Positions 7,940 through 38,887 of a DNA stretch of 38,887 nt are shown here, in pieces. The notes beneath the pieces are model-generated. The model was not told the DNA's origin, made no database searches, and worked only from the letters and a program-made list of their open reading frames with translations. Source of the DNA: Moniliella sp. 'wahieum' (taxonomy: Eukaryota); NCBI GenBank assembly GCA_003971905.1, contig RSEE01000019.1, forward strand, positions 744,001 through 782,887, in the 5' to 3' direction. The first letter of the stretch is position 1. The number at the start of each line of letters is the position of its first letter. The position numbers were made by a program, and so were the translations under genes.

Positions 7940-7973
7940 GTGACCGGTGACCAGTGACCAGTGACCAGTGACC
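7940..7973. repeat. Heptamer tandem repeat (GTGACCR) x5
   Basis: GTGACCG GTGACCA GTGACCA GTGACCA GTGACC read directly. Confidence 0.9.
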
Positions 7974-10165: not shown

Positions 10166-10624
10166 ATGCTCGGCGCTCCTCTCCGTTCCCTCCTTCGGCC
10201 TGCCCTCGCGGCCACGACACGGCCCGTCTCGGCGCCCTTTGTGCGGGGAGTGCATATGGCACGGAGTGGTTCCGCTCCCCGTGCGCTGCGCGCCTCTGCG
10301 CGCATCGCCACCCCGCTTGCTACCCCCCTTTCCGCCCCGCTGCCCTCGCACCCGCACTTGCACGCCCACGTCGCGGCCACGCCCGCCACGACGCGCGGAA
10401 TGAAGGTGCGCACGTCGCTCGAGAAGCGGTGCAGCTCGTGCCAGATCGTCCGGCGGCGTGGCAAGACGTTCGTGATTTGCAAGGCGCATCCGCGCCACAA
10501 GCAGGTATGTCCATCGCCCCCCCCCTACCAGGCTCGGTTGGATTTGAGCCAGGAATGATACAGGATGCAGGATGGTACTAATGCGTGCTGCTTGGTTTCT
10601 GTTTCCCAGCGGACACGCAACTAA
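10166..10624 (+). CDS. RTC6: Mitochondrial ribosomal protein bL36m with long targeting presequence
   Basis: Arg/Ala-rich presequence then [37 protein letters not shown] (L36 zinc ribbon). Intron 10505-10609 (GTATGT..TACTAAT..CAG); short last exon RTRN*. Confidence 0.9.
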
Positions 10625-13794: not shown

Positions 13795-14209
13795 CGGCTG
13801 AAGCGCCCGTTGCTTGACGCCCTACTGGCCGGCCCATGCCGTAGTCATCGGCGGGAGTGGGGAGTGGGGAGTGCGGAGTGCGGCGCATTGGCCCGCTTCG
13901 CTTCCCCGCGTAAAAAGCACCCTCCATACCCCGATTCACCTCCCCTCCGGCCTCCTCTCCCTAGCCACTCGCTACTCCCCATCCTCAGATCAGCCCCCGT
14001 TCTAGCACCCCCATGGATTGTATACTTTCCGCATTGGAACATTCTTAATTGCACTTACTTCTCACATCGCACGACGGATGGAACCATCGTTGCACACTGC
14101 ACACTGCACTCGCACCCTCCCCTCCCCCGAGGGCCGCCGGGGAGCTTGTCGGCCCTGGTGTTAGCTGCTGTCGCTTCTGGGGCGCGCGCTCTCGAGCAGC
14201 GGCCTGGAG

Positions 14210-19080: not shown

Positions 19081-20207
19081 ATGGTACGACCATCCCCTCG
19101 CTTCCCCCACCAGTCTGCCATCCCTCACGTCCACCGACCAGCAGGTCCAGCACGGCGCCAGCCTATTTCACGCACTGTTCTCCCTCGCCCCTGCTGCCCC
19201 TCCAGCTCAACTGCCTTGCCCCCAGTAGGCACCCCGACTCTCCCCACCGCACGAACGGGCTCAACAGCTGTGCTTGGAGCCTCCCTGTTCAGCTGCGTTG
19301 AGATGCTGCTTCATCTCGTTGCCTCCGCCCAGCCGGGCGAGCCAGCCGGCGGGGCAGCCGACCACGCGGAGCCGCCCTACATCCTGCTCCTCACCGCCTT
19401 ATCTCGGGACGAATTCTACGAGGAGCTCCGCGGGGGCGATCGACTTGAGCTCTGGAAACAGCTCCTTGACCAATTTCGTCATCGGGGGGATGCTCTCGCA
19501 TCCAAGATGCACTGCATTGACATTCGGTTCGTCCTCCCCTCACACCCAAGCAGTGAAGGCTCACCCCCCATTCCAACTCTTCTCTCCTGACTAGCTACGT
19601 CCCCACCTGGAGACACTGTCTTTCCCTGCTTCTCCATCTCGACATCTGTCTTCCCCCGTTGGGTCCGGAGGCTCGTTATGCGGCACGCGACGTGTCCAAG
19701 CTAGGCGAATCCGGCAAGCCGGGGGAATGGGAATTGGAGAGCATGCTTCCTGTGATTGCTCTGCCACAAGCCCCTATGGCTGTGGTTGTGCATGGCATTT
19801 CACGTTGGAGCGAGGACGGGGAGCATGTGCTTCCCCTCATCATGGCAGAGACAAGTACGTTTTGCACAGAGATCGTGCCACGAATGCGGGCCAAGCGGCG
19901 TGATGAGACGGCGGCCTTAGGCGGATCATCTCCCGCTCGGGCGACTGATCTGCACCTCCGGCCGGCGCCTCTGCTGTACTTTGACCACCCTCCTCTCTGT
20001 GCTTCTTTGGATCCACACACCTCGCGCGCGCGCCTTGTGGATCGCGTCCTAGTCGTCAACCAGCATGTGACGCCCGGTAATGATGTTGCGGACGATGCGG
20101 CCAGTGCTGCCGATCCACCCCGCCAGTCCGACCACCTACTTGCTTCTTCCACCTCTTCTACCCGCTCTCACCCCGGCCTATCAGGCTCGCCACACGAGAC
20201 TGGTTAG
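19081..20207 (+). CDS. Hypothetical protein, possibly SWSAP1/Shu-complex (RAD51-paralog-like)
   Basis: Two ORFs join in frame via intron 19527-19594 (GTTCGT..CTGACTAG). ILLLT..., IDIRYVPTWRHCLSLLLHL and PMAVVVHGISRW loosely resemble the SWSAP1 layout. Gene structure is good; function is tentative. Confidence 0.55.
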
Positions 20208-20269
20208 CATTCGACAAAAATGCATTTTCAAGTGTAGCATTCCTCAGGGCAAGGGGCGGAGGGGAGCAA

Positions 20270-21503
20270 CTAAGACGCAATCTTCCACTTGAGCTGCTTG
20301 CCTGCCAGAAAGGGAACGACAGCAATCTTTCCGGGCTGGGTGTCAGGCCAAGTCTGGTGGTCGGCCAAGACATACTCGGCCGGAACTTTACCATCGTCTG
20401 CCTGTGCACTCACAGTCCTGACCAGGGTGACGGTAGGCGTGGCGTCAGAAGGGAGGGTGTGGCCATAGAAGGCGCGGCCATTGCGGCTCACAAATCCTTC
20501 TAGCTGCTCCAGCGCACCAAACGATTCCAGCAGCGTCGCACAGAGCGGAAGCAGAATCGCCGATGTGTACACCCCGGCCGCACAGGCACACTGGGCCGCT
20601 GCGGCATAGCTGCCATGAGAGGAAGCCGGGCATCTTGTTGGTGAACGGATGTGGAGCCGAGTCAGAGCCAAGGAAGAAACGCGGATGGCCAGAACGAACA
20701 ATGTCCTGCAGAGCAGCACGATCAGAGGGATACTTGGCAACTGGCTTGCAAAAGTTGAGCGGCTTGCCGGCCCAGTCGTCGACAATGAGCGCCAGGTGGT
20801 GAGCGGTGATGGAGCAGCCAACGGTTGCACACACTGCTTCACCGCCTCCACCGCGGCAGCAGTTGTGGCGTGCTCCAGTACAATCCGGAGGGTGGGGAAG
20901 CGGGTGTGGATTTTGTGGAGTTGCTTGAGGAATGCTTCTTCAGCGTTCAAAACACAAATTCCCTGCTCGTGAGATGAAAATGTTAGCCCAAGATGGTCGC
21001 GCATGCCGCACGACCTCAGGAGAGGCACAACGTCAAGACGGGAAAGGGGGCGGGGAGTCAACTAGACCACGCACAAGGTCTGGGTCGCTTGGGATTTCCC
21101 CATGAAGATTGAGTACCAGCCCTTCCTGCGCCATGGCCTCAAACACGGGGTAGTACATTTCGTAGTTTTCAATGCCCCCATCCGAATCGGTCGTCACCCC
21201 GCGCGGATAGGACTTGACCCCACAAATGCCGGCCTTGGCGGCCTTGCGGATCTCGTCCGGGGTGAGAGACGGGGAGAGATAGAGGGTCATGACCCACTCG
21301 GTATCGGGAGCGAGGGCGAGCAGGGCTTGCTTGTAGGCCAGCGCCTCGTCCACCGAGCTGATGGGGGGCGTAGTGTTGGGCATGACATAGCCCAGTGAGA
21401 ATCCGCCCTGCTTGACATGGGGGGCAATCAAGGACGCCATCTGGCCCTGGCGGACATGCACATGGTAGTCTGCGGGCGCGGGGATGGTGATGGACGAGGC
21501 CAT
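20270..21503 (-). CDS. URA4: Dihydroorotase (type II, homodimeric)
   Basis: DYHVHVRQG, VMPNTTPP, GVKSYPRGVTTDS, LNLHGE, intron 21074-20963, RIVLEHATT, ITAHHL, NFCKPVAK, FFLGSDSAPHP and CAAGVYT. Frameshifts in exon 2. Confidence 0.95.
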
Positions 21504-21777
21504 GGCCGCGGCGGGTGAGGAGAGGAGATGGTGGTGAGGAGAGGAGATGGTGGTGCGATGGGGGCCACGCCGTGCGCTGCTAACCCCATGTCCATGCCGG
21601 GCAAAAGTAGCATGCGAATACACAGGGCACGGGCCTAGGCATTGCACCGATAGTGGAGACCAGCCGTGTTGGATCATCGATCCACTGCGGGGGGCCGCAT
21701 GGCCTGATGCGTGATGGCCGCGCTGGCTCCAGGAATAAGATCAAGACGCGCCCCCACGCAGTGCGCTTCCCATCGCC

Positions 21778-22650
21778 ATGGCTGTGCCCCCCTCGTGGAA
21801 GGATCTGAGCAAGGCCACCACCGACCTGCTCGGCAAGGACTACCCGCTCGGCAGCTCCACCCTCGACATCAAGTCTGTCGCCCCCAACGGCGTCGCCTTC
21901 CATGTCCAGGGCTCCCGTCTCAACCGCACCGGCGGCCTGGTTGGCGACCTGGAGCTCAAGGCGGCCAGCCGCGCCAAGGGACTGAGCGCGTCGACTGTCC
22001 TCACCTCGTCGAACCAAGTGCGGCAGACGCTCGAGGCGGAGAACTGCTTCGCCAAGGGCTTCAAGCTCGACTTTGTCGGCACCTTCCACCCCGACAAGCG
22101 CACCAAGACGGGTGTGATCAACACTACGTTCAAGCAGCCTCGTCTCCACACCCGCACCTCGATCGATCTTACCAAGGGCCCTCTTATTGCCCACGACAGC
22201 GTGGCTGGGCGGGACGGCTTGCTGGCTGGCTACTCGGCCGTGGTCAATGCGCAGACCAAGCAGCTGACCAACTACAGCGTTGGCGCTGGCATTTACGCGC
22301 CCGACTACTCGATCACATTGCTCAGCACCAACAAGCTAACCCAGTACGCCGCGTCCTATTATCACCGCATCAATGCCGATGTCGAGACGGGCGCGCGCAT
22401 CCTCTACGACGCATCCAAACCCGCGCCGGCGACCAAGCTGGAGCTGGGCAGCAAAGTCTACCTCGACAATGCCGCGTTCATCAAAGCCAAGATCAACACT
22501 GATGGCATCCTTGGCCTGGGGTACACCCAAGCGCTGCGTCCTGGCGTCAAGACAACGCTTGGCCTGGCACTGGACACGAAGGCCTTCTCGACAACCGAGA
22601 CAGCCACGCCAGCCCACAAAGTGGGCGCGGCGCTGTTCTTCGAGGCATGA
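21778..22650 (+). CDS. POR1: Mitochondrial outer membrane porin (VDAC)
   Basis: Intact 290-aa ORF: MAVPPSWKDLSKATTDLLGKDY...KAKINTDGILGLGYTQALRPGVKTTLG...HKVG...FEA. Confidence 0.96.
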   Translation: MAVPPSWKDLSKATTDLLGKDYPLGSSTLDIKSVAPNGVAFHVQGSRLNRTGGLVGDLELKAASRAKGLSASTVLTSSNQVRQTLEAENCFAKGFKLDFVGTFHPDKRTKTGVINTTFKQPRLHTRTSIDLTKGPLIAHDSVAGRDGLLAGYSAVVNAQTKQLTNYSVGAGIYAPDYSITLLSTNKLTQYAASYYHRINADVETGARILYDASKPAPATKLELGSKVYLDNAAFIKAKINTDGILGLGYTQALRPGVKTTLGLALDTKAFSTTETATPAHKVGAALFFEA

Positions 22651-22769
22651 CGAGTGCAGCTGTTAGTTTTGGCAAGAACGCTGGTGCTGTAAGCAATGCT
22701 GATTATCAATTACCCCTCAACCTGCTGGGTAGGCGCATGGGAGGTCTTGGAGGGGGAGGTGATGACAGG

Positions 22770-23560
22770 GGGTGGTAAAGTAGCCACCACCGGCAATCGG
22801 TGTCACTCCACCGTCAGCAATTGGCCAGACGTGCTGGCGCACAACAGCTGAGAACCCAGGCAAGCCGCACGAAAGACGGCGCGTACCAGGATATTGAGAG
22901 CTGCCATAAAGCCATCGCGTTTCAGAGTCAGTCGCAGAAGAGGGGCCGCTTTCCACACCACGGGAGCAGCTGCTTGCCGCGCGATACAGGCCCAAGTGGA
23001 GCCCACTTCGACATCTGCCCGAACACTAAACCAGCCAGATGGTTCTTCAGGCCCGCAAGGTGCTTCGCACACAGCACTTCGACCGCATCCGGCCCAAAAG
23101 TTCGCGTTCTGGGGACGCGGCATACGAGCCGCCCGCCCGGGCATGCGCTCTCTGACCTGGCGATGCACAAAGGTCAAATGATCGGAATGTTGACCCACTG
23201 TAGAGTCTTTCTTCATAGCTTGTGCTCAGGCCACCTCCCGATCCCGGGTCGGCCCTGAGGAAGGCGCAAACATCGGCCGAGGTGCTTTTCTGCAAGCCAG
23301 CCTTCAAGCAGAGCAAGCAGGTGAAACACGGCATGATCGTCGTGACGATCTAGGTAAATTCTTCCAAAGCGACCCGCCGCTTGGTTGAACTGAGGGAGGC
23401 CGCCCCCCTCGTGTTACTCGGCCGCCAGGGCGCAGCGCACTCCACCACTCGAATTGATCTGAATCGGAACGGCGGGTTTGTTTGCTTCGGCGGCCAGCTT
23501 GGGCTAGTACCGCCGACACCGACTGCCCGGCTTAGTGCGTGCGCCTGCGCTGCGACGGGC
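22770..23560 (-). mobile_element. Degenerate fragment (F) of CRE-clade non-LTR retrotransposon, N-terminal part up to the start of RT
   Basis: Colinear with 27820-28680 of copy A (shared GGTAAAGTAGCCACCAC, CACTCCACCGTCAG, CACAACAGCTGAG, GCAGCGCACTCCAC-like blocks). Reads DGGVTPIAGG vs DGGVRPIACG, and LCAKHLAG. Confidence 0.8.
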
Positions 23561-24329
23561 GTCCCTACCTGTCTCGTGCACGAGCATCACGGCAGGCCGC
23601 ACGATTTGGCACAGCCTCCAGGGAGCGGGCTAGGCAGAGAAGGCAGAGGTGGTGGTGAAAGATGGCAAAAGACCAGGCGGAGGGGGCGGGGTCAACTTAA
23701 CCGGGTCGGGGCGGGCTTGGCGCCAGCTACCGGCTGGGTTCGCCCTCACAGCATCGTTTCCATCGTGCGATTCTCCTCGGACAACGGAAACCACCTCCAT
23801 CGCCTAGACGAACCAATTGCGAGCCATCGCCTGCGCCCCGGCCAAGAAGCACCACTCGGCTTGCGACTCTGGCCACCACCCGCTGCCGCCTCTCGTCCTG
23901 CATCCGGTCCACATCCCGCGCAGTCACCGGATGGACATCCCGCTATGCACCATCACCTCGTGCCCCTGGCCCTTGGGCGTGGATCAGACAAAACGCAGTC
24001 AGGTATGGTGTGGATCTCATGCATTACAGACCGACCGGCCACTGAACGTACGAAGAAAACCGCAGGGAACCTGTGAGCGCTGCCCTAGTCAGAGTCAACC
24101 ATCAAGCAAACACACCTCACAAGCAAAGACAGCAGAGACAAAGGGTCGATGGGCACCCACCGCACCCCGTGCAGCCCACCAGGCCTGGGGGCGCGCCCAG
24201 CCCGCCATGCGGGCTGGCTGCTCTCGGCTCAGCTCTTGCAATCGGCGGCGTGATGATGAGGGGGATGACGAATTGACCTCCTTATCTTGGTGGGCCGAGA
24301 CGCCCTCACAGGCGTCCGGATGGCGCGGT

Positions 24330-25050
24330 TGACAGTTCGAGCCACTTGCACCAAATGTCAGTGCGTAAAGAGGCCCACCACACCGAGTTGAATGGGCTAT
24401 TCTGTAACGAAATGTCCAACCGACGCACAATCTGCCCCACTCTCCCTGAAACATGATTCCCATCTGGGAGAAGAGGGGGGAGGGCTCTAATATGCAGCAG
24501 TCGGATATTGGCCCCAAGCATCATGTTGGGGAGTGGCCAAGTGCAAAGCGATGCCGACCCACTCATCACATCTCTCGCATGAATGAAAAGCGGGTACTGG
24601 CTTGATCCACGTTCTTGCCCTGGTGCTCAGATATTCTTGTTGATCATCCGCATACCCGTGCCTGTACGTCCCGGCCTGTACAGGCGCGCTGGTCAGTACA
24701 TCATACCACAGGAAGTGTGGGTGGGGGTCGTCATCGGACGTGTAAAACCAATAGAGGTAATCACGGGCCCGTGTTGAGTAGGGTGCAGATGTTCGTTTTG
24801 GGCTTTAGTATGATCAAATGCAAGGAAGGTGGCCATTGCTAGCCATTGGCGCTCTTTGGCCGAAGGGGGTGTATGGATCTGGCTCTCAGGTGCATGGAGC
24901 TTTGCTAGTCTTGGCCACCAGCCCCGGAGTACCGTCCGCTGGCACTCGTGCGAGCCTCTTCTGCAGCCCATACAACAGTAGCGTACTTGGAGTAAAGTCA
25001 AAGCTGATCTCAGAATTCTTGCCGACACATTGGGGGTCTACCGTGTGCCG
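24330..25050 (-). mobile_element. Degenerate fragment (E) of CRE-like element, C-terminal endonuclease region
   Basis: Colinear with 30160-30585 (TCTGTAACGAA..CCGACGCACAAT, GTTGAGTAGGG vs ATTGAGTAGGG, TTTAGTATGA). Shares GGTCAGTACAT (WYDVLT) with copies A, B and D. Confidence 0.55.
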
Positions 25051-25094
25051 TCTTTTGCTCTGAATGCGGAGAAGGCACACACTGAACCAGGCGG

Positions 25095-25725
25095 ATGAAG
25101 CGCAGCCGCGCCCCCCGACATGTTCTACACGCCCATCCCGTACAACAGAGCAGCATCGAGCTGCATCTGCTCTTCACCAGCCGTAGAGGCCTTCGCTGCC
25201 GGCGCATCGGCAAGGGGCGTGAAGAATGCCCTGCCTTTGCCAGCACTCCCTGCATTGGCGCCTTAAAGGGCGGCCTGAGCGCGCGCACATTGCCTCTGGA
25301 GCTGCTTCCAGCTAATGTACAATGTCAGCAACTTGGGTTCCAGCAGAAGGGTATGAACACGTACATGCATTACCACCATCAAAGTTGCGGTACTCCATGG
25401 ATGGGCCGCCGTCAAGTTGATTTGTATTCCACCACGCAGCGTGTCGATATCGCTAACCCAGCCGCGCTCTCGATGCCAGTTCGGGTGCTGCATGAACAAG
25501 GATGGGGGGCAAGAAGCGGAGGCAAGGGGCGCGCGCCTCGTGACGCATCCGGTTTGGTGCGCAGCGAGAGGAGGGACACGAGGTGCCGCGACGGTCCCAA
25601 CGTGTTGGCTGGTGGCGAAGAAGCAAAAGCCGCCCAGACGCGACGAGATCAAATCCGGCACGGTGCCAGACGTATAGGCGGCGTGGTCGCACTCAGTGTG
25701 GATGGATACCTGAATTGCGACTGCT
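25095..25725 (-). repeat. Subtelomeric repeat family X, copy 1 (putative coding, unknown product)
   Basis: Homologous to 31120-31640 and 35240-35725; encodes GGIQINLTAAHPW...LLLEPKLLT...KAPMQGVLAKA. Confidence 0.75.
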
Positions 25726-25844
25726 TCGGCGCATCAAGCCAGATGGTTAACCGTCAACCCCGACGGGACCCTCAGCCGGTTGGCCATGCCCACCCCCCCC
25801 ATGAGCCACGCGCTTGCGCGGTTGGCGCAGCCGCGGACGAGTGC

Positions 25845-26060
25845 GAAGCGTGCCTTGCCTTTGCCAATGGTGGTGCCTATGGCCAAGGCACGCAGTGGAG
25901 GTACTCCCTCCTTGGGCGCCTTGCACGCCTGCTGAGGGACGCTGATGTGACAACGGCTGCACGAATGTGGGCGTTCCGACTGCGTCTGGCCAATGCGAAA
26001 TGTCAGCAACTTGGGTCACCTCAGAAGGATATGAACCACGTACAGGTATCCCCACCAGCA
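25845..26060 (-). repeat. Family X copy 2 (partial), just downstream of retroelement copy A
   Basis: GCCTTTGCCAA, GGCGCCTTGC and GTCAGCAACTTGGGT (26002) blocks shared with other X copies. Confidence 0.7.
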
Positions 26061-26189
26061 AAGATGGCGCGCTGGGCCCATCGTGGGTCGGTAAGCGCAA
26101 AAGAAGGGGTGCACCGCGGCGAAGCACATCCCGAAGGACAATCAATAGCGGCACAGTTCTTCATCCTGTTAGCCCCACACCCCCATATC

Positions 26190-28700
26190 TGACCAACATT
26201 CCTTGGGCTTGGGCGAGGCGATCTGCAGATGAGCAGCCCCTGCTTCATGTACCACATCGCGGCAGAAGCCGGTAACGATTCGATCCATGTCTTTATCTTG
26301 CACCTCAAGTTCTTGCAGCGCCTGTCCGTTGTTTCATCTGCAGCACCCCCCCGGTCAACGTTGGGGCGGGCCCTGGCACACCGGCCCCGCCACCATCCGA
26401 GTTGTCGTTGCCTGGCGGGGTGTTTAATCTGGTGCGGGGAATGCCTCTGCAGATAGCGGGACGATCGTTTGCTTATCCCATCGGCTATTCTCCACCATCT
26501 AGCGTATTCGTATCTGTTTAGTGCACTGGTCAGTACATTATACCACAGCAAGGCTTGGGTGGGTTCGTACCTGATGAATAGATAGTGGGTACATTGTGCA
26601 TGACAGTGTGAAAGAGCATTTGCACGTCTGGCACCAAGGCCGTGACAGTAAGGCAGGGGCGAGATAGGCGTGTGGGATCAACAGAAACGGACCGACGAGG
26701 TGCCACATCGCGTCAGGTGTGCCTTGATGGCAGCGTCAATCCTACCTTGGTCGCAACACCACCACGGGGGACAGCAGCGATATGAGCCCCGTCTCATCAG
26801 GGGTACGAGTAGTCCCCCTGCAATGGAAGGCACCATATCCAACCCCACCTTACCAGTAGCTGCGGATAGAACCAACCGGAATGCCACCACTGTTGGCACT
26901 CGAAAGCCTAAGCGACCTATACGGGCTGGCAAGGAGAAAAGAGTTCCGTTCCACTTCTGACCGTCCTCATCGCTCGGGTCCGCTCCCCGGATTGCCTTCA
27001 CCTCGCGCCAGAGCTGCTCGTCGATCAGGTAGAGCTGCTCCGCCAGGTCGTCTGTCCGCATCGAGCGGAGCAGGTGCCGCAGGTTCTGCTGCAGAGCCAC
27101 TCGCAACAAGAGCAAGCGGTCCTGCAGCGGCATCCCGTGCAAGGCGAGGTAAAGCGCTGCCTGTGCCTCCACCTTTGCCTGCAGAAAAGCGAGCCGAGCT
27201 GCTCTGGGACCCACGCACGAGCCGAGGAAGGTGCCGCCCTCCAGACGCAACTTTTGCGTCGAGACAGTCTTCGTCTTGCTCAGGTTGAGTTGCAGCCCCG
27301 TCTTGCTCTGCGCCACGACACGCGAGACCAGCTGCAACGCATTGGCGTTGCGGGACAATACATAAGTGTCGTCCAAATAGGACATCAGCAACCACTCGTC
27401 GCCCAGCGCGCGCTGAGCCTGCTCGAGCATGCTGCGGATGCCGACAAAGAAGAAGGCCCAAAGGGGTCGCCCTGCCTCACTCCCTGCTGGCTCAGGAGGG
27501 TTCCAAAGCCGCCTGCACCACCCAACATCAACTGGGTGCGCTTCCCATAAGCCCACCGGAAGAAAGTAAGGAGCTCGGGCGAATAGTCACTCACCGCTTG
27601 GGCCACCGCTGCCCTCTCGATCGAGTTGAACGCATTCTTAAAGTCCAACGACAGCACATAATTGAACTTGGCCCAAGCCGGGTCCCTCTCATCCCCACTA
27701 ACCAAACGATCCATAAGCCGCACAATCGGCTCCACCCCGCCCTTGGACTTGACGCCCAACTGGGGTGTGGAGCAGAGGAGTAACCACATCCAAATGAAGA
27801 AGAAGTGCCTTGGCAATACGCGGTAAAGTAGCCACCACAGGCGATCGGTCTCACTCCACCGTCAGGCTTCGCAAGTGCTGTCAGCCTACTGGTGCACAAC
27901 AGCTGAGCACCCGGGCACGTCCCATGAAACATGGCACACGCCATGGCTTTGAGAGCCGCTCTAAAGTCATCGTGCTTTAAAGCCAACTGGAGAAGAACCG
28001 ACCATCCGCCCACGTCCCGGGAGAAACTGCTTGCCGCGCGGTAGATGTCCTTATCATCCAACTCCAAAACCATTGGGCGCTCACCGGCGTCTGCCGCTGC
28101 GGTGTCGCCTGTTAAACTAGGCGGGGGCCCGCTCCGACATTTGCCGAACCACCACCAACCAGCGGGTTCTTTGGGCCTGCAGGATGCTTCGCACGCAGGG
28201 CCTCAACCGTTTCCGGCCCAAACCCCACCGCTGCATCCTGGGGACGCAGCGTACGAGCCGCACGCCCCAGCATCCCCTCTTTGACCTGGCGGTGTGCACG
28301 GTCAAATCATCGGAACGCTGGCACTCTGCAGAGCCCGTCTCCATAGTTGGCGGTCAAGCCACCTCCGGATACGCCTTCAGGGTGGCACACACGTCGGCCG
28401 AAGAGCCTCCCCCGCAAACCCGCCTTCGGCCGGGCAAACAGGTTGAACTCGGCGTAATCATCGGGATGATCCAAATACGCTCTTCCCAATCGACCGGCCG
28501 CCTCCTTGAACTGACGCCGCACCGTGTGCTGCCCGGCGGCGAGAGCACAGCGCACTCCACACTGGATCCGAATCGGGACTGCGGAACTGCCGGGTGGTCC
28601 GCTTCGGCTGCCAGATTGGGCTGAGCACAGCCGACACCGGCTGCATGGCGTAGCCCGTGCGCGCCTGAGCTGTTGGTGTTACGCTAGTTCCCACCGGCAT
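26190..28700 (-). mobile_element. CRE-clade (Cnl1/MoTeR/SLACS-like) non-LTR retrotransposon, most complete copy (A): RT, Zn knuckle and REL-type endonuclease region
   Basis: LRAKHPAG, LTALAKPDGGVRPIACG, QLGVKSKGGVEPIVR, LSLDFKNAFNSIER, QQGVRQGDPFGP, MSYLDDTY, FLGSCVG, LQQNLRHLLRS, LPARIGRLG, then WCQTC...HAQC and a REL-like tail. Frameshifted; may extend to ~28930. Confidence 0.9.
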
Positions 28701-28949
28701 AGTTCACGCGTATCACGGAAGGGGGCCACATGATTCGCCACGACCTCCAGACGGCGGGCAAGGCGGAGGAGAAGGTGGCGGTGGAAATGTGGAGAAGGAA
28801 TAAGTTGTCCATTGCCCGCCCCTCTCCATTCAAGAGTGCCTTGGACACATTCGTAGCCAAAGTAGCGCACGCAGTCCAGAACCTTCTGCGAATACACTCT
28901 TCTAGTCTTGCATTCTTCTACCAAAGTACCATAGTCCGACTCCTAGGCT

Positions 28950-29975
28950 GTGGTTTTGCAACGTGGTGAAAAAAACAGGGAAATCAAGCAAAGCACCTTG
29001 ATCCATGTCTTACAGGGGTGGCGCGTTTGGATGCAGTGATCCTTATACCTTAGCTTGCACAGCGGATGTGTAACCACAGGTGGAGTCACCCGCAGCGAAG
29101 ACCAAGGGAACAGAGCTACGCACTCGTTGCACAAGGATTGTACGCTGGTGCTTTTTTTTGGCCTCTATGTCGAACAAGGTGTTCATCTCCTTACACAGCG
29201 CGTGTGCCTCAGGACGGCGGCGAGCGGATGGCAAATACGACGTAAAATAGGCGCCGCGCGTCTTGTCTCCGAAGGTCGAAGGGGTTAGGCCGTTGGATAT
29301 GGATGGGCTCTTTGGAGCACCTGCGTTTGCCATCGCGATCTCAGTGCGGGTGATAGTGGCGTAGCAGCGCCCGACTCGCTGAGTGTTGTTGAATGGCTCG
29401 GGCTCTACCATAGTGGCCAGAATGTCCCGCAACCCAGTCATGACCCCGTGGCCAGGAATGTGGACGCTGGATTTGAGGGCACCACCGACCTCCAGCTGGG
29501 ATCGAGCGCTTCTGCTTTCTCATCAGCCAGGAGCCGAGCGATGTAGTCACAGGAGGCAGCAGCTTCGTATCCTGGCAGGCGAGCAAAACCGTCGTCGTTT
29601 CCTTGTGCCATGACGAGGGGCGGGCTCGAATGCCTCTCGTTGGCTGCCGATCACCCCCTGGTGCACCCATACGTTCGCCTCGCTGCCCAAGTCGATGCGT
29701 TGGCCTGTGGAGCAAAGCCAAGAGGAGAGAGCAAGACTGATCTGCCCAAAGCGACGGACATCGGGATGCCAACTTGGTCCTACCATTGACCGACCACATT
29801 GCCCCGATTGTCGCCCCGGTGACTTGCCTGGTGCCGTTGCTGCTCACCTACCCAGGGGAGTTTGGCCTGTGCCAGATACGTTTTCTCCGTCTCGAGCGAA
29901 ACAGATGGCGGAGGGGTTGCTGCAAGCACGAACCGCAAAATGAACAACCAGTGGGGCAACTGGAGGGATTTCAGG
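28950..29975 (-). mobile_element. 5'-truncated diverged CRE-like copy (C): RT C-terminus plus REL region
   Basis: CLQQPLRHLFRS (cf. LQQNLRHLLRS in copy A), then GHD, VEPEP, EAKKKH and VPLVFAAG, matching the REL endonuclease layout. Confidence 0.65.
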
Positions 29976-29989
29976 CAGGGGTAGCGAGT

Positions 29990-30940
29990 GGTTTGACCGC
30001 ATTGTTGACTCGCAAGAGCATCAGTCAGGTGATACAATCCCCAATGCAGAAGTCCAGGCTCTTGGCACGTTGCGTTTGCACACCTTGCACATTGTGTTTT
30101 TAAGTCGAGCCACGTTACACATTGGAACCTTTTCTTGTTCACTCGGGCCCTTCGCCTCGATCGCCTTCTGTAACGAATGTCTAGCCGACGCACAATTTGC
30201 CGCACTATCCCTTGGACTTGGTTCCCATTTGGGATTAGAGGGGAGAGGGTACTCGAATATGCAGGATATTGGAGCCAAGACGAGACGGAGCTTGGAGGCA
30301 TACGACTTGGCGGCTTCAATAGGAACCATTAACATCTCCCACATATATAAATGAAAGCGGGCACTGGTTTGATCCATGTGGTTGCACTAGTGCTCGGACA
30401 CTCTTGATGATCCATCTCCGTCTGCATACCTGTACGTTCCGGCCTGCACAAGCGCGTCGGTCAGTACATCATACCAGATGAAGTGTGAGTGGGGTCGTCG
30501 TCGTACATGTACAACAGTGGAGAGAATCATGGCCCTGGTATTGAGTAGGGTCGTGCGGATAATTGTTTTCGTCTTTAGTATGAATGACGCTGATGGTCGG
30601 CGGCAGTAAGGTTGTGATGAGGAATGCGTTCGCTGTGCGGAACGGCTTGTGCGTCGTGGAGGTCATTGCGGCCAGCACCGGGAGTGAGTTGGGGAAGAGC
30701 TTGGGGCTGCTGCTGGGACCAGGCCGAGAGTTCGACCCATTTTCGATCAGTTTTGGGCGGGATCAATGCGGGTTCCATATTAAGGAACACCCAGTCATAC
30801 TGGGTCAGGACCTGGCCGGTCTGTGCGGGCAGCGGAGGCGTGGGGGGCGCGACTTCGGGAGGGGAGAACAAAGAGACGCAATGGGGTCACAGCCCTGCTG
30901 CGAGTTCCGAGCAAAAGAGGCGAGGTGGAGGATTCATTTT
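29990..30940 (-). mobile_element. 5'-truncated CRE-like copy (D)
   Basis: EVAP, TTLLP and WYDVLTDAL segments; homologous to fragment E; GGTCAGTACAT at 30459. Confidence 0.55.
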
Positions 30941-31640
30941 GGCACGCTTGGGTTGGGTGTGTCGCCAGTCCCCTGACCAACAAGCGTGTCGAGCCAGGCA
31001 GTCACATCCATGATCAGTACCCAATCGAGTGAGGCTCATCGACACTATCCAATCCCGTCTCTCATCCTCTTCAGGGATCCAACAAGGGTAATGAGAGCAG
31101 CCACCCCCCCCGGACCTGCTCTACGCACCCGCCCCAACACAGCAGCATCGAGCAGGATCTGATCTTCGCCAGCCGTAGAGGCCTTCCCTGCTGGCACATC
31201 CGCAGGAGGCGGGAACCGTGCCTTTGCCAATATTCCCTGCATTGGCGCCTTGCGCAACTGGCTGGGGGACGTGGGTTAGGTTAGGGTTAGGGTTAGGGTG
31301 CGCACACATTGCTTCTGGTGCTCCGTCCAGCTAAGGTGAAACGTCAGCAACTTGGGTTCCAGCAGAAGGAAATGGACACGTACAGGCATCACCACCATCA
31401 AAGGTATGGCATCCCATGGGTGGGTCATCTCCAGGTTAATTTGCATTCCACCGCTGCGCATCGTGTCGAGCTCGGTAACGCAACCGCCTTCTCGCAGCCA
31501 GTTCGGGTACTGCATCGACAAGGATGGACAGCAAAAAGCGGTGCCCAGGGGCGTGCCCCCCCGTGAGCATGCATCCGGCTTGGCGGGTAGCGCAAGGATG
31601 AAGGAAGCAAGGACACGAGGCATAGCAGATTCCCAGCGTG
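30940..31640 (-). repeat. Family X copy 3, containing an internal telomere tract
   Basis: GGMQINLEMTHPW...LLLEPKLLT...KAPMQGILAKA...GSLKRM; homologous to 25095-25560 and 33170-33860. Confidence 0.78.
31273..31299 (+). repeat. Interstitial telomeric repeat GGG-TTAGG-(TTAGGG)3-T
   Basis: Read directly; same orientation as the terminal tract. Confidence 0.93.
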
Positions 31641-33169
31641 TTGGTCGTGGAGAGGCAAACCGGTCCCAAACGCAGCCAGGCCAGAATTGGCGCGGGGCCA
31701 GGCTTGGGCGGTGTGGCGGCGGCCAATGTGGAGGAACTTCTGCGCGCCAAGCGAGCGGCAAACGCACGTTAAACGTTAACCCCGCGGCGGCAGCCCTTTC
31801 CGCGCGTCCCGCGCAGAGGCGGCCGATTGCGGCCGATTGCGGGGCTGCTTGGCTTGCGTCCGCCGCCGCCTTTTGTGGTTGCGGCCACGAATATCACAAC
31901 CCAGCCCCCCTTCCCCTGTCATGAGCAGCAGCTCTGTGGACTTGCACTGCAGCAGGGAGCGCTGCCCACGCGGCAAGGCACCCGCCGTGTTGGCCAGGCA
32001 CAGGTCGCTTCCACGCAGGCCTGGTGCACAGCTGCTGAAGCAGGCGCGTGGAGCGCGTCGGACACTGGTTGCGCACGTCCCTTGCTGCGCAAAGCCCAAC
32101 CCGCGCCTTCCGTACAACAGAGGGGAGAGCAGTGCGCGCACTTGCCTTGCGAGGGCGGCGTCAAGCGAGCAGTGCTTGCACTTTCACCCCGCGTCCGCGT
32201 CGCATGCGGTGGATAAGAGGCATTGATGCAACCAGTTTCCTTGGGCTAGTACGCTCGTCCCAATTACTGCTGGTACTGTGTTCGGTCTGCGTGGGTTGTC
32301 AGTATTTCGCACCACAAGAGAGTACAAGAGAGCAGGGGCAACGTACCATCACCACAATGTGAGCCAGCAAGCTTGGTCGAAACGAATGTGCACATCAAGT
32401 GTTGCAGATAAACCGCCCATATCGGCAGCAGCTATCCTATCGTTGGTAACTGCGGAGACATCGCACCACATTTGTAGGGCATGGACAACGTTTACAGCCT
32501 GCACGCAAACAGTACCAGGGCTCATGAAGCTGCGCGCTGCACTGGAAGAATAGCGGAACCAGTCCCCAACATTGCAGTCACCACGCGGCCGTTTGGTGGC
32601 GAATGATGTTCCTTGGGCGCTGGGTTCAGAGGCGTCTGTGTGGCGGGATCGCTGCGATATATGTCGGGGAGTCGCAATGAATAGATGGACATGTTTGGGT
32701 CTCCCGGGATGCAATGCCAGCAACGAGTTCCCCAAGATGATGTGCCTTAGATGTGCACGTAACGCACGAGCAAGCACGAGCAAGACAGCTTAGATCGACT
32801 CGGGACAAAATAGTCAGGAGGCCATTAAGCCAGACCAGGTTGACGGGATGGCATACCCACCGCCTTGCTTCTTTTGGTTAGGACCTGCGGTACACATGCG
32901 CTCGCGGGAACAGTGATTGTTGCGGGACAGATAGAACGAGACAATTCGAGCGACTAACTGGACCGCCGCTCCAACGACGACTGCCGCGATGACAGCCGCT
33001 GTCTTTGCATGCACAAGGGCATGACGCAGAGGCCGTACCAGGAGCTCGCCGTGTGGGTACCCGGCCCAGCAGCACCGGGGGCCGAAGACAGGGGAGGGGA
33101 ACGAGGAAATGTAAATGATAAGGGAGGCGAATGATCAGGGAGTGGCAGACAGAAGATGCGAGGCTGAGA

Positions 33170-33870
33170 ATTCACTCCGACACGGCTTGGGTTTGGGGGT
33201 GGTCGACAGCCCACCCGAACGGCAAGCGCGGTGGACCAAGCGTCGCATCAATCCTCAATATCCAATCGAGAGTGAGGCTCATTGACGCTAACCACACCAT
33301 CTGCATCCTCTTCAGGGGTCCGAGATGCGGCGCCCATCATCCCCCTAAATGGTCATGACAGGCCGGGTCTCGTGCTCGGGAAGCGACAGAACTGCGGCTG
33401 GGCAGGCCTGCTCGGTCAGCAACGCGTTCTCTGGGAGCAGGCAAGCCTGTCGCCGCCGACCCCCATCTTCTTTCGTAGTGCTGTGACTGTGCCAAAGGCA
33501 ACGCACTGCGGCCGCTCGTCCCCCGCACCCGTTCTCCACGTCTGTACCGGCCCCGCATAACAAAACAGCATCGAACAGCACTTGCTCCTCGATAGCAACT
33601 CGATGGCTCCTTGTCGGCGGAAGCGCAGGGAGTGCGAAGCCGGACTTGCTCGGCTTGTGGTGCAGCGCCGATAGCCAACAGGGCAGCGCCGTGTCGGCGT
33701 ACCCTCATTGGCACGCTGAATGACTGGCTGCGGGGCGTTGACGTGACGAGTTGCAGGGCTGCATGATGCGTCCGGCCGATTGCCTCCGGTGCTGCGCTTA
33801 GCCGATATATATGTCAGCAACTTGGGTTACAACAGAAGCACAAGGACCACGTACAAGCATCGACATCCAC
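33170..33870 (-). repeat. Family X copy 4
   Basis: CCAATCGAG..GTGAGGCTCAT..CATCCTCTTCAGGG shared with 31020-31078; ACAGCATCGA; GTCAGCAACTTGGGT at 33813. Confidence 0.72.
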
Positions 33871-33989
33871 ACCAAGAAAGTTGGCGCGCTGGGCCCATCC
33901 TGGATCGGTAATCCCTGAGAGAAGTGTGCATCGCGACCATGCACATCATGAGGGACGATCAGTAGGACCAATTCTTTTCATCCTGTTGG

Positions 33990-34900
33990 TCTCATACCAC
34001 CAGGCCGCCCCCCATTCCTCAGGCGTGAGCGAAACCATCTCCGGATGCGCGTCTCCTTCTTCATCGATACAACGACGCGGTATAAGCTGGCAATGGTTTG
34101 GTTCGCGTCTTTATAATGAACCTCAAGCTCTCTTGCAAAGCGTGCCCATTGTGTTCATTGGGGACGATCCCAGGCCAGGTGGACGGCGGGACCTGGCAAC
34201 CCCCCCGCCACCATCCGAGGTTGCCGCTGCCCGTCGTGACGTTTAATTTGGTGCGAAGGGACGCCTCTGCAGATGGCGGGCTGACCACTTACTTGCTTCC
34301 ATCGGCTATTCGGCTCCGGCAGGCATATTTGTACCTGTTTAGCGAGCTGGTCAGTACATCGCCGCAGAGCAAGACATGGGTGCTTTCGTACCAGAGTAAC
34401 ACATAGTCGGTAGAGCGGTATCAACGCCGCGCAAGACAGCGTAAAAAGGATTCGCACGTCTAGCAATTCGGCGTGGCCGTAAGGCCGAAAGGAAGGTGGC
34501 GGCGCGATAGGCTTTTGCGAATGTAACGCAACAGAAGCAGAAGAACGAGATGCCACACCGCGTCACAGTGTTCCTTGATGGAAGCGTAACCCCCGTCTTG
34601 GTCGCAACACCCACCATGGGGGACATGAACGATACGAGCCCAGCCTCGCTCGTCGATGGAGGAAGCAGCGGTACGTGCAGCCTCACAGCAATGGAGGGCC
34701 CGATATCCAATCCCACCTTACCAGCGCAACTGCTAGCAAAAGGGAATGTTGTCATTGCTGGCACCCGCGTTGCAAAGGTAAAGCTCATACCCATGCCAGG
34801 AATACTCCAAAGGTTGATGTGGCAAAAACTTGTTGCTTCACCCTACTCCGACGAGCCCAAACGCACGCACAACTGTTCAGAGGTAATGGGTCCACTTCTC
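33990..34900 (-). mobile_element. 5'-truncated copy (B) of the same retroelement family as A
   Basis: GKVGLDIGPSIA vs GKVGLDMVPSIA in copy A; CTTGGTCGCAACAC, GGTCAGTACAT, CATCGGCTATTC and CCCCGCCACCATCCGAG blocks colinear with 26380-26900. Confidence 0.8.
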
Positions 34901-35239
34901 CTGGGCACGACAGTTGCCCTCGAGCCGGTTTGTGGAAAATGGTTACTCATGGGAACCCAAGCACGGCCGATTTGGGGGGACAACTAAAATCGATACAAGC
35001 GGGCTGTCGGCGCTCCATCGCGGAGTGAGGTTGGCGCGCTGCCGTTGGGCAATGTGGCAAGCAACGCAAATGGGAGGGCGGCAAATACCAGCAAATGAAT
35101 CATCCGCGAGTGGTGCTGCGTTTGGTTGGGGCGCTGCTGGCTCTGAGAGATGTGCATGATGCATGTTGCTGCCCAGCAAAGGGAAGAGGGCGATCCATAC
35201 TGCCGCCCTCGTTGCCACCACACGCACAGTCCAGCTGTC

Positions 35240-35725
35240 AGGACCCCACGGATGGGCCATCTTCAGGTTGATTTGCATTCCGCCACGCACGATGTCGACC
35301 GCGCTTGGAACAGAAGCGGCCGATTCGGGAAGAACACGATTCACGTTTGCAGGCAAGGCCCGATTCGTCGTACCCACGACTCTAGGTGGGCGGGTGAAGG
35401 AACAGCGTGTCCTGCTCGGCATGCTGCTGCAGACCATCGCCTAGGCCTGGGACGCGTCTAGGCCTGCGTCCCAGCCGCCCCTCGTATCGAGCGCTGCATG
35501 GACAAGGATGAGCAGCAAGAAGCGGGGCCCCGCCCCCATGAGCACGCATCCGCCTTGGTGCACAGCGAGAGGAGAAAAAGCTAGGACACGAGCTGCAGCG
35601 GCGGCCCCACAGTGCTGGTTGGTGGCGCAGAAGCAAAAGCCGCGCAGACGCGACGAGATTAAATTCGGCGCGGAGCTAGGGTTGTAGGTGGTGGCCGCAG
35701 CCGATGTAGATGAATTGCAACTGCG
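35240..35725 (-). repeat. Family X copy 5 (5' portion)
   Basis: NLISSRLRGFCF and RGGMQINLKMAHPW; GAAGCAAAAGCCGC-CAGACGCGACGAGAT shared with ~25620-25650. Confidence 0.72.
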
Positions 35726-38700
35726 TGGGCGCGCCAACCGACGCGGCGGCCGCAACGCGACGACGCAACGCTCGCCGCGAAACCGAGCGGCCCAGCGCTG
35801 TGCCGAGGGGGACACCTGCACCCATATCGGCACCACACTCCCGCGACTGGACCCTCGCCGCGCGTGGCTTCCCGACCCACGTACCCCCTCCTTGGCTGGC
35901 CCGTCCTTACCGGCCGGACCTGGCCACGAACCAACCCACACTGCCGATTCTTGGGGACAGCAGTAGGCGTTTGCCACGCTCGGCAGCACAGCGCACCAAG
36001 CAAGCGGCGCCTTGTCTACCGACCCGCCAATCCGGAACGCAGCGTACCTAGTGCGCCTTTTGGTCGCGCATCCTGCTTCCCCTCGCGTCTCGTCTCCCCC
36101 CTCTCGCCTTCACCGCCGTCGTCCCCGCTGTCCCCGCCGCAGCAGCCATTGGGCTACCCCCTTGGCCGTTGTCCCGCCCAGCACCATGCTCTGCAGCTGC
36201 TTCGCGTCGAGGCCATGTCCATGGCGTTGCCCTGCGAGCTGCTCCTCGGACTCCGCGAGGGCGCCGAGCGCGGAGGTGGTCGCTTGTTGTTGTTCGTCGG
36301 GGTGCTCGCTGTGTGTCGCCTAACATCTCTCGTTGCGGCCAAGAAAAACTACCAACCTAGTCTCTCCCTTTCGCACAAGCAGCAGTCGCTCCAGACCCGC
36401 ACTGCAGACGGAATCGCTGCAGACGGCGTTAAAGGCGTCCGCTGTGTTGCCCAGAAGCAGCTGGCTATCCCGTAGGGGCGCCCGGCCGCTAAAAGACCCG
36501 GATGCAGGTCCGACATCCCCTTCGCACGTCCCTGCCCGGCCAAATGGCAATCAGGATCGTCCGAGCAGACCCCACCGAAGGGGGAGTGGAGCGGGTACTT
36601 TCTTCGCCACAGTAGCTGCTCATCGTCAAGTGGGGCAGTGCGTCCATGGCCACCGCGTACCCTCGTATGCCTGGAAAAGGGGTATTGATCCAGGCAGGTT
36701 CCTCGTTGCTTGAGTACGCGCGTCCCAGTTGCTTATGGTGCGGTGTTTGATCTGCTTTGGTTGTTAGTAACTTGGACTGTACAAGAGAATGTAGGTAACG
36801 TACCGCCATCACAACCTGGGCCAGCAGGGCAGCGACAGTCATAAACCGAACACCAGTGCCGATGGCAGCCTTGCCACGCCCTGTATCCCAGTCAAGAGGA
36901 ACATTCGTAGCTGGAGCAAGGTAGAAGAGGCGGCAAGGGATGAACCACTGAGGTGCTCGTCAACACTGAACCATGCATAGTGGTCCAGTCAAAGGAGGCA
37001 ACTCTATCATTCAAGGGGCTGCTCCTTCGCGGGGTGGGCAGCGCCTTCCATGGCAACAAACAACTTGGCGGTCCAGTCCTCGCATCTTGCGAAGCTTGGT
37101 CAAACTGTTAACGCAAAGTGAATCCAGTAAGTATATCATCCCCTCCGGTTCTTTCTCTAGTGGGGCTGCGCCACGACCCTGAAAAGACCATGATCGTATA
37201 CGTACGTTCTTGGCCGCCAGATACGCCAGTTGGTCCTCCGTATCATTCCAGTTGTTGTAACACGTTGTGGTCCCCGCCCCCCCGTGGTGTGCTGACCAAG
37301 ACGGGAGTTGAGGTACAACATTGAGATCAACAGTGTATCGGGTAAAGAGCGTGCATCATCTTGCGCAGTTTTGAGAGTTGGGATGGTGCCTCATCTGCTC
37401 ATGAGACATGTGCGGGTTAGCACCTCTTCCTCCTCGCGCTCTCTCTCTCCTTTCACCCCTTTCGTCGCACCTGTTACCGCGGCGGGGTGCCAGAAGGAAG
37501 AAGAGCATCTCAACGGATGGACGTCATCGAACGTACCGATACAGTCGAGCCAGGACAGCAACTGTGGCAGAGATTGTGGTTTTGATCGTGCTTCTTGAGA
37601 TCATCCAGAGTCGCTAGGGCTGGGGAGAGCCGTTCGTCCAACCACTGCCGATTCGGGGCATAGTCATCGGCACTCAGTTGCGCTAGACAGAGCTGGGCCA
37701 GGGCGGTATTAGGGCCGATGGGGACTCATAAAAGGGCTGCAGCGGCCATTTGCCACCACTTTGATGCCAGAGTCGCTCGTACGCAGTGGCAAACCGTTTC
37801 TTGGCGGTTGCAGGTAGATAGGCCGGCGATGGACAGTGGCGAGACAATAACATCGAGGGTCGCGTTGGTCGGCGCCTATGATATTGACTCGTATGTGATG
37901 TTCCACAAGGGCATCCCCGCTAGCATGGTGCCCCAGGCGAAGTTGGTGAACATGGCACTGTTTTCTTTGCCCTGGGAAGGAGCTTCGCCAGGGGCTAGAC
38001 GGGGGGGGATGGACCAGAGGCTGCCTCGAGCAGGCCCCCGCCCGGAGCTGGTCGCCTCGCCCTCGCTGCCTGCTGCCGGCCTCCTCGCCCCCCATCCACC
38101 CCCCTCGCTTCCCACTCCGTTCCCCTCCTTCCTTGCCCGACTCCAACCCATTTTCGGATCCACCAGGCAAGGGGACCAAGGCCGTCTCCGCAACGGCAGC
38201 CCTGCGCACAAAGACAGCGTTGAGCGCTGCCCTCTGCGTCGACCGGCGCAACGGCCCCATTGACGCCGACGACCGCGATCGTCCCTGTCGCTGCGTCTTG
38301 ACCGCCCCAAAAGACTCCCCCTCCGACTCGGAGGGGGGTAGTAAACACGACCACGTTTCTTTCCAGATGAACCACGCGCGCTTGTCCGGGACGCATCCAA
38401 TACGGCAGCCGCTGCTGCCACTCCGATTCGCTCCGACCCGTTCGGCAATGTCTTCTGCGCTGCATTCACTTGCTCAGGGGTACCCATTTCTTGCGAGCAA
38501 TCGCCCTGATCGACGTATCAACCAGGTCTTGGCATTAGTCGCATCGGTGCCCGGGGATGCGGCACAGGTCGCACTTCTTGCCCCCGGTCACCGCTTGTTG
38601 GCAGACCGCTGCCGCATACTCGAAGCGGGAGCACCGCTCGCATTGGCGAGGGCACATCGTCATCGTACAAACCTTCTTGCCCCGCCGTAGATGCCTGGCC

Positions 38701-38859
38701 CTTCCTTAGGCTGTGGTTTCGCAACGCAGTAGATAGGGAGAAGTACATCCCACAAGGCACATCATATCTGCACTTGGACAGTCAGCGATGAGCAACGAGG
38801 CAATAATGGGGACTTACTAGTTACTCCAAGCAGGGCATGCGTTAAGCCGATGAGTAAGC

Positions 38860-38887
38860 TTAGGGTTAGGGTTTGGGTTAGGGTTAG
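38860..38887 (+). repeat. Telomere repeat tract (TTAGGG)n with one TTTGGG variant; probable chromosome end
   Basis: TTAGGG TTAGGG TTTGGG TTAGGG TTAG running to the end of the window. Confidence 0.9.

Follow-up and report, generated by a model that had tools for sequence, protein, structure and literature searches.

Towards one end of a chromosome of the fungus Moniliella sp. 'wahieum', a gene-like sequence that we call X occurs in five copies on the same strand as the remains of a reverse transcriptase (RT) element, which raises the question of what X is: a gene carried by that element, a mobile partner of it, or a part of the element itself. The DNA considered here is contig RSEE01000019.1 of assembly GCA_003971905.1, positions 744,001 to 782,887, a stretch of 38,887 nucleotides (nt) that we refer to as the window. 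An earlier note on it had proposed X as a passenger gene, possibly for a membrane protein, or as a non-autonomous partner of the kind represented by MoTeR2 in Magnaporthe, and had put it forward as the best candidate for an undescribed system. Our analysis points to a plainer answer. X is probably not a gene; we take the copies to be terminal modules of a decayed family of telomere-targeted retrotransposons encoding an RT and an endonuclease of the restriction-enzyme-like type (REL), among which the RT-less copies would be MoTeR2-like, the block having later been duplicated in tandem. The supposed undescribed system is then retroelement debris and a fairly ordinary relic.

The right end of the window consists of TTAGGG repeats (38860-38887, plus strand, with one TTTGGG variant), which place the chromosome end and its telomere there and fix the orientation. 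From 22774 to this end the sequence is repeated debris with a G+C content of 54-64%, the same as in the genes, and all RT and REL relics in it lie on the minus strand. It is a decayed head-to-tail array of a telomere-type retroelement lacking long terminal repeats (non-LTR), and since its sense is on the minus strand, the 5' ends of the elements face the chromosome end. Blocks are named in element sense, so that their coordinates descend.

Composition of the repeat copies and tests for coding

Comparison of the window with itself by blastn bears out the five copies at about the places first noticed, with E values from 6e-18 to 2.4e-105: 25099-25572 matches 31094-31598 (73%, E 1.5e-82), 26000-26856 matches 33811-34724 (70%, E 2.4e-105), 25481-25732 matches 35487-35732 (73%, E 5e-38) and 30912-31080 matches 33150-33321 (74%, E 6e-18). 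Four copies do share the exact 15-mer GTCAGCAACTTGGGT, at 25324, 26002, 31343 and 33813, all on the plus strand; four exact matches are far beyond chance (the shuffle mean of 1.34 refers to matches with up to three mismatches), and the window holds no further match at up to three mismatches. X also lies, as had been reported, directly downstream in element sense of an RT/REL remnant at both places (26903 to 25980 followed by 25980 to 25085, and 34767 to 33896 followed by 33896 to 33150). What does not stand is the treatment of X as a single family or unit, the five copies being of two kinds. Three of them, X1, are built of blocks a, b, c and d and start at 25085, 31081 and 35243; the other two, X2, consist of blocks c' and d' directly behind an REL remnant, at 25804-26079 and 33508-33896.

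Self-comparison resolves these copies, all on the minus strand, into sub-blocks. Most of the array falls into two units, I (22774-27822) and II (27822-34767), and the X1 copies of the two pair over a, b, c and d (25834 to 25085 and 31848 to 31081). Within X1(I), blocks a and b occupy 25392-25834 and are specific to RT-less copies, block c, the common 3' module, lies at 25256-25400 with its 15-mer at 25324-25338, and block d at 25085-25256. X1(II) has a, b and c at 31300-31848, with the 15-mer at 31343-31357, and is followed at 30912-31272 by d (31081-31272) and a further block, W (30912-31080), whose counterpart W' lies at 33150-33321 (31080 to 30912 pairing with 33321 to 33150). X1(III), at 35243-35777, retains b (35243-35305) and a (35487-35777), block c being missing or unrecognisable. 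The X2 of unit I, which is the copy first placed at 25845, comprises c' (25980-26079, 15-mer at 26002-26016) and a truncated d' (25804-25980); that of unit II, first placed at 33170 together with W', comprises c' (15-mer at 33813-33827) and then d'. Upstream of block a in unit II lies block Z(II) (31804-32369), which pairs with Z(III) at 36261-36826 (32369 to 31804 and 36826 to 36261, 68.5% identity).

The gene-like appearance of X comes from stretches free of stops, which reach 156-205 amino acids (aa) on the minus strand and, on the plus strand, 365 aa. Long open reading frames (ORFs) are common here, however, with 58 of at least 150 aa in the window at 60% G+C, and the 365-aa ORF (25095-26192) runs from one element across into another and does not stay open in unit II, where its longest counterpart has 194 aa; compared with Pfam only, it belongs to no Pfam family. 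Of the conserved minus-strand peptides, GGIQINL..HPW, GGMQINL..HPW, LLLEPKLLT and FKAPMQGVLAKA are indeed present in the stop-to-stop translations, but LKRM was not located. Their likeness reflects the 73-85% nucleotide identity of the copies rather than protein conservation, because translated similarity is about equal on both strands and in several frames, and the substitutions described as conservative are what 75-85% nucleotide identity yields in any frame.

We compared non-synonymous with synonymous differences per site (pN/pS) in the ungapped b-c block, where the ratio is 1.10 in the frame first favoured for X. The frame of the plus-strand ORF, which has no stops there, gives a more gene-like 0.56, but values of 0.43-1.24 are found even in frames full of stops. 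The true RT frame, used as a control, gives 0.59; all copies, RT included, have drifted neutrally, so that the test has low power and the former nature of X is not readable from it. Mismatches between X copies are spread evenly over the codon phases (34/38/51, p 0.13), and most indels do not preserve a frame, 5 of the 18 between X1(I) and X1(II) being multiples of three. No Pfam family was found in 15 translations of X regions and their flanks, no homologue of the X1 translations in a collection of 5.8 billion proteins (searched at 62-359 aa and 360-2000 aa), no usable match of X translations in a protein atlas (recognition 1891) and no 19-aa window at a Kyte-Doolittle value of 1.6 or more. 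Lacking an intact shared ORF, a coding signal, homologues and membrane segments, X does not hold up as a passenger gene or membrane protein, and it is very improbable that it encodes a real protein at all, be it in a minus-strand frame, as cargo or second ORF, or in the plus-strand ORF.

The RT element and its probable terminal block

The remnants beside X had been labelled an RT/REL ORF, probably correctly given their RT profile matches and a C-x9-RHD relic. ORF 26678-27586 (minus strand) has three distant homologues, among them a protein here called P0003, and a search with P0003 returned a family of 583 proteins at E <=1e-3, many of them 950-1300 aa long. RVT_1 is present in eight of nine relatives tested, and downstream of the RT the relatives carry C-x2-C-x7-H-x3-C-x9-RHE and, at the protein end, a conserved tail KY..F.PL..S.GG...hW....iSl.LlRAR..F.f. 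This CCHC-REL pattern is the one given for MoTeR, FoTeR, SLACS and CRE (PMC12857005). A profile of 56 full-length relatives matches 28525 to 26903 in three different frames, with 41, 72, 126 and 183 bits, and also 22949 to 22833, which yields one frameshifted RT-bearing relic, A2, and one fragment of the RT N-terminus, P(I); the Pfam RVT_1 model reaches 19.4 and 16.7 bits on the window, below its cut-off of 29.6.

A2 (25980-28799, minus strand) retains the N-terminal/zinc-finger region, the RT, the thumb, a linker motif, a CCHC/REL remnant and c', with its ORF broken into at least three frames. Residues 1-100 of P0003 align to 27214 to 26903 (E 7e-16), and in the REL part ICRG is kept, starting at 26454, whilst RHD is lost. 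A second RT-type copy, without the RT part, leaves an REL remnant at 33896-34767 (minus strand) in which direct translation of 34274 to 34233 reads ICRGVPSHQIKRHD, a C-x9-RHD, with HVLLCG and the linker motif just upstream. The REL part is much more eroded than the RT: a family profile of the C-terminal region finds nothing in it above the reversed control, and the E, RxD and D/E motifs of REL are not recognised in the window's remnants. Judged from its sequence, the element appears to be of the telomere-targeted non-LTR kind in which an RT is followed by CCHC and REL, as in MoTeR, FoTeR, Cnl1 and CRE/SLACS. The idea of a Penelope-like element with a hammerhead ribozyme was set aside, as Rfam gave no match at E <=1 in 20000-38887 and the RT relatives carry a CCHC-REL tail.

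The end of this element would fall within the X2 copies. The remaining 302 residues of P0003 predict a C-terminus at 25997, and the best match of its last 16 residues, among six frames of the whole window, lies at 25992-26039 (minus strand), where VVHILLR*PKLLTFRI stands against RVSILLQRARTHTFRI. Between the end of this match and the C-terminus expected from colinearity there are 5 nt, and the second-best match is the c of X1(II). Translated, the 15-mer in c' would give PKLLT, among the final ten codons of the RT-REL ORF.

Block c is also what the two kinds of copy have in common. Over about 100 columns its identity is 85% for X1(I) with X1(II), 65% for the RT-type pair and 70-73% from one kind to the other, and each of the four c copies has the exact 15-mer. 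Immediately upstream of c, over 15 columns, identity is 20-33% between the kinds compared with 67-100% within them, and farther upstream a-b shows no similarity to the REL remnants that precede c' (local alignment z <=2.0). Such a sharp drop implies that, when last copied, the two kinds ended in almost identical blocks of about 100 nt, each preceded by sequence unrelated to that of the other, and RT-less and RT-bearing copies thus have a 3' block in common. The X2 copies (25845 and 33170) appear to be the 3' end of the RT element itself and not a partner. For X1 (25095, 30940 and 35240), with c behind RT-less sequence and a sharp edge to it, a MoTeR2-like partner is reasonable but unproven, with partial support, so that this half of the original proposal applies to three copies and not to the other two. 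A conserved RNA structure in block c was considered and dropped, the consensus energy being only -7.32 kcal/mol and double changes occurring in 2 of 22 pairs.

Further matches to the RT-REL family were seen to the left of the array. At 6043-6907 on the plus strand, opposite to the array and some 32 kb from the telomere, an additional relic lies inside ORF 6041-7168, which has no Pfam family; 21 + 8 tblastn matches are colinear there with P0003 residues 130-399, and 6851-6907 scores 7.5 against the C-terminal block of the family (control maximum 5.2). This relic could be an internalised former chromosome end. The highest match to the C-terminal block in the window (11.5, same control maximum) is at 10421-10477 (plus strand), antisense to the ORF containing Rot1, and is probably due to chance because other signals of the family are absent nearby.

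Proposed stacking and duplication, and rival explanations

Block d follows c in all four c copies, and W follows d in two of these. In X1(II) the boundary of c and d is occupied precisely by about 4.5 CCCTAA units (element sense), oriented like the terminal tract; read on the plus strand, this internal tract spans 31273-31299 with about 4.7 GGGTTA units, including an exact (TTAGGG)3 at 31281-31298. In X1(I) a deletion spans the corresponding spot, and the two X2 copies have just 4-10 unassignable bases there. In FoTeR, 3-7 TAACCC units come after the 3' end (PMC12857005), and the tracts that separate MoTeR elements in their arrays can be as short as half a unit or exceed 20 units (PMC7367193). 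Both descriptions agree with an element junction. We lean towards viewing c|d as a junction at which the 3' end of a younger element abuts the 5' end of an older one in a stack, whilst giving appreciable weight, though less than an even chance, to c-d-W being one long shared 3' region into which the telomere tract was inserted secondarily. Were c|d a junction, 33700 to 31300 (minus strand) would be a complete RT-less unit of about 2.4 kb, a candidate element with the block order d'-W'-(780 nt)-Z-a-b-c, bounded on its 5' side by the RT-type c' and on its 3' side by the internal telomere tract. No RT or REL profile match falls inside it. Two RT-less stretches, 33700 to 33150 and 31272 to 30912, are headed by d-W.

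Much of the linkage between X and the RT would be explained by duplication. P, Q, X1, X2 and the REL remnant come in the same order in units I and II, with identities of 75.7% for P, 79.6% for Q, 77.4% for X1 and 74.6% for X2 plus the REL remnant (26902 to 25804 and 34767 to 33594), and a third partial unit with a, b and Z follows at 35243-36826. The units differ by insertions and deletions, in that fragment F occurs only in unit II and the stretch from Z to W' is absent from unit I. Transition/transversion ratios of 1.05-1.40 and an unchanged G+C content rule out hypermutation resembling repeat-induced point mutation (RIP) as the cause of the divergence. A single tandem duplication of the composite block would account for two of the X pairs and the repeated X-RT linkage; because the units are duplicates, the four c|d junctions amount to two independent ones. 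The earlier note had itself held that its proposal would fall if one segmental duplication explained the linkage wholly, and this is so in large part but not entirely, as c, d and W still occur twice within one unit, which implies that the duplication acted on a stack of two or more elements alike in their ends. A ratio near 1 in all frames, which the note had named as another ground for refutation, is what pN/pS shows, though the RT control is just as neutral.

In the sequence of events that we envisage, block c would comprise the last codons of the RT-REL ORF and a short 3' untranslated region, and would end two kinds of element: an RT-bearing one, the source of X2, and an RT-less one with an unrelated body of Z, a and b, the source of X1. 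The RT-less partner may have borrowed the 3' end that is recognised by the RT in target-primed reverse transcription. The 5' end of the older element next in the stack would be represented by block d, with or without W, and (CCCTAA)4.5 would be the telomere tract that the younger element entered. Recombination at the chromosome end may then have copied the composite block in tandem two to three times, after which all copies would have decayed neutrally.

A number of observations weigh against this account. Telomere repeats are found at only one of the four c|d junctions (31273-31299), with at most doubtful remnants at the other three. With a score of 26, the match between c' and the C-terminus of P0003 only equals the best one in the reversed control, so it is its position that argues for c' as the end of the ORF, and a stop codon at the expected place is absent from every copy. 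Neither the family profile nor block-wise scoring matrices find anything significant in c, d, a, b, Z or the REL remnant of A2, where scores do not exceed those of the reversed control. The 5' end of the RT copy is lost at about 28799, so a shared 5' module such as that of MoTeR1 and MoTeR2 cannot be shown. The innermost relic, P(I), is truncated on its 3' side, which simple terminal addition would not yield; this cut beside the porin gene suggests a break-repair junction instead. Finally, whilst Z-a-b has no RT or REL profile match and no nucleotide similarity to the REL remnants, Z and a give weak colinear tblastn matches to the REL of P0003 and its relative P0004 (E 0.009-2.8, 5-kb database), among them FSPLAVHQGGCVLMGAGPRF against FKPLAMTTGGCLEAGAHETF, and on account of these the RT-less body, instead of being foreign, could represent what is left of a REL that has diverged very far.

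Taken further, that last point would make X1 a set of 5'-truncated copies of a second, strongly diverged autonomous lineage, with Z, a and b as decayed REL coding region and c as its C-terminus. The weak matches to P0003 and P0004 do run in the right order on the right strand: Z(III) at 36593 to 36447 has CRTCIRV against CRTDFRV, X1(II) at 31756 to 31553 aligns with P0003 residues 301-366 (PKPGPAPI against PRPGPDPI, E 0.009, 5-kb database), X1(III) at 35587 to 35516 agrees with 10 of 20 residues in the F.PL....GGC motif, and c(II) matches the last 16 residues; truncation at the 5' end is moreover usual for such elements, as in MoTeR relics (PMC8381367). However, REL was sought in X by family profile, sliding-window searches, a three-copy consensus and block-wise scans, and the outcome does not favour it. 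The profile finds nothing in Z-a-b-c, even on the three-copy majority consensus, all scores being negative, and the block-wise scans (CCHC-RHD, E..RxD, KY-F.PL-GG and C-terminal) rank no X copy above the reversed control. A frameshift-tolerant alignment against P0003 gives z values of 2.9, 0.6 and 0.1 for the three X1 regions, which are uninformative given that a porin negative control reaches 7.4. The spacing is also a misfit, with about 75 residues between the F.PL-like motif and c compared with 46 in relatives, and the abrupt loss of similarity at the edge of c is more in keeping with a chimeric partner than with gradual divergence. We consider a second lineage unlikely on these grounds. 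Nor does X appear to be the REL domain itself, since a CCHC reading in d of X1(I) and a reading of GG..HPW as the GG..hW motif did not rise above reversed controls.

It may also be asked whether X was ever mobile. An old subtelomeric stretch containing retroelement debris might simply have been amplified by duplication, through break-induced replication or unequal exchange, with c/c' and d-W/d'-W' stemming from an earlier duplication. The colinearity of units I and II over five blocks at a uniform 75-80% identity agrees with this, as do the third partial unit (a, b and Z, 35243-36826), the documented recombinational tandem amplification of MoTeR arrays (PMC8381367) and the innermost relic, whose 3' cut beside a housekeeping gene looks like a repair junction. 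Amplification on its own does not readily explain why c stands twice per unit behind two unrelated sequences with a sharp boundary, why the telomere tract in one copy lies exactly at the c|d boundary, or why c' stops at the expected end of the ORF. Features such as these mark the termini of elements and not arbitrary duplication breakpoints, and we therefore rate duplication without mobility as distinctly improbable, retaining the terminal modules of an RT-REL family as the probable origin of X.

The rest of the array is made up of further relics on the minus strand. Block P(I) (22774-23672) holds the N-terminal part of the RT only (motif 1-2) and duplicates 27822-28799, the two copies running from 23672 to 22774 and from 28799 to 27822. 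Q(I) (24400-24813) pairs with 30166-30583 (24813 to 24400 and 30583 to 30166) and preserves traces of the post-thumb linker motif from yet another copy of the element; 18 tblastn matches of family members fall there in one register, at P0003 residues 126-213, compared with 7 in the busiest bin of the reversed control. Fragment F (29456-29964), a relic of the thumb and linker motif, is confined to unit II. A stretch at 28804-28860 (minus strand), 5 nt from the upstream edge of P(II), resembles the C-terminal block of the family (score 10.0, control maximum 5.2), and together with fragment F it looks like a 5'-truncated element that ends right where the RT copy starts. The terminal 2 kb (36826-38859) shows no similarity to other array blocks and no RT or REL signal.

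To the left of the array, ordinary genes, including Rot1, a mitochondrial carrier and an amidohydrolase-like ORF, run up to the porin gene (21739-22650), and the array begins just 124 nt past the porin stop codon (22650-22774) with an RT fragment cut on its 3' side. Among the genes are 7-base tandem arrays at 325-347 (TAGTGAC), 7940-7973 (GTGACCA), 10995-11021 (GTGACAT) and 13853-13880 (GGGAGTG), and at 13036-13135 a 15-base unit, TCCTCCTCCCTCATG, is repeated 6.7 times inside ORF 12353-13741 (plus strand), where it encodes a serine-rich peptide repeat; this ORF has no Pfam family.

Comparison with known telomeric elements

The likeness to MoTeR and Cnl1 is drawn here from published descriptions. 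MoTeR1 and MoTeR2 of Magnaporthe (Pyricularia) oryzae provide the closest parallel to the two kinds of copy in that MoTeR2 has the same 77-bp 3' end as MoTeR1 and, in place of the RT region, unrelated sequence (PMC7367193); here, an RT-less form likewise carries a short 3' block of the RT form, of about 100 nt. As in the present array, with its REL relics and one internal telomere tract, the RT of MoTeR is accompanied by a REL-type endonuclease, and the elements are telomeric, arranged head to tail with the 5' end towards the chromosome end, and separated by short telomere tracts (PMC7367193, PMC8381367), with truncated relics and recombinational amplification of tandem arrays (PMC8381367). 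The differences are considerable too. The host here is a basidiomycete, a relative of the smuts, and not an ascomycete, the copies are all dead and 20-35% diverged, the shared 5' block described for MoTeR, of 860 bp, could not be shown, and the variant telomere-like repeats at the MoTeR 5' end were not seen, telomere repeats being present at one junction.

The most gene-like unknown of the window proves to be retroelement debris rather than an undescribed system, so that a false lead is removed, and the chromosome end of a smut-related fungus is documented as a stack of tandemly amplified RT-REL relics that includes RT-less copies with the terminal block only. It is possible, if doubtful, that the 2.4-kb unit d'-W'-Z-a-b-c (33700 to 31300) and its relatives are relics of a true non-autonomous telomeric retroelement that parasitised a Cnl1/MoTeR-like RT-REL element through its 3' recognition block, and perhaps a 5' block. 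The partnership of autonomous and RT-less elements known from Magnaporthe would in that case be a recurrent feature of telomere-targeted elements across fungal phyla. A literature search gave no RT-less telomeric partner in a basidiomycete among the titles listed (12 of 92 papers), which is a weak negative. Should living copies be present elsewhere in the genome or in related species, partnerships of the MoTeR1/MoTeR2 type would reach into the basidiomycetes, and there would be a handle on how these fungi rebuild their chromosome ends.

FoTeR of Fusarium oxysporum resembles the RT-bearing relics in the order of domains that these probably had (zinc finger, RT, CCHC, RHD and REL), in having decayed copies beside the telomere and in a 3' end that leads into 3-7 TAACCC units, comparable with the roughly 4.5 units after c of X1(II) (PMC12857005). 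In FoTeR, however, there are intact copies under purifying selection alongside decay by RIP, whereas none is intact here and the substitutions are ordinary, and the excerpted FoTeR descriptions mention no RT-less partner that would correspond to X1 (PMC12857005). Basidiomycetes are also the hosts of Cnl1 (Cryptococcus) and of the Cnl1-like elements of Malassezia, which are RT-encoding non-LTR elements beside the telomere tract (PMC10055393). Malassezia belongs to the same subphylum as the smut fungi, and its telomere-adjacent Cnl1-like elements had already been reported (PMC10055393). These elements have one large intact ORF of 1,479-1,648 aa, unlike the relics and RT-less copies found here, but in M. 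slooffiae interstitial telomere repeats lie between element copies (PMC10055393), much as the internal tract does between c and d of X1(II).

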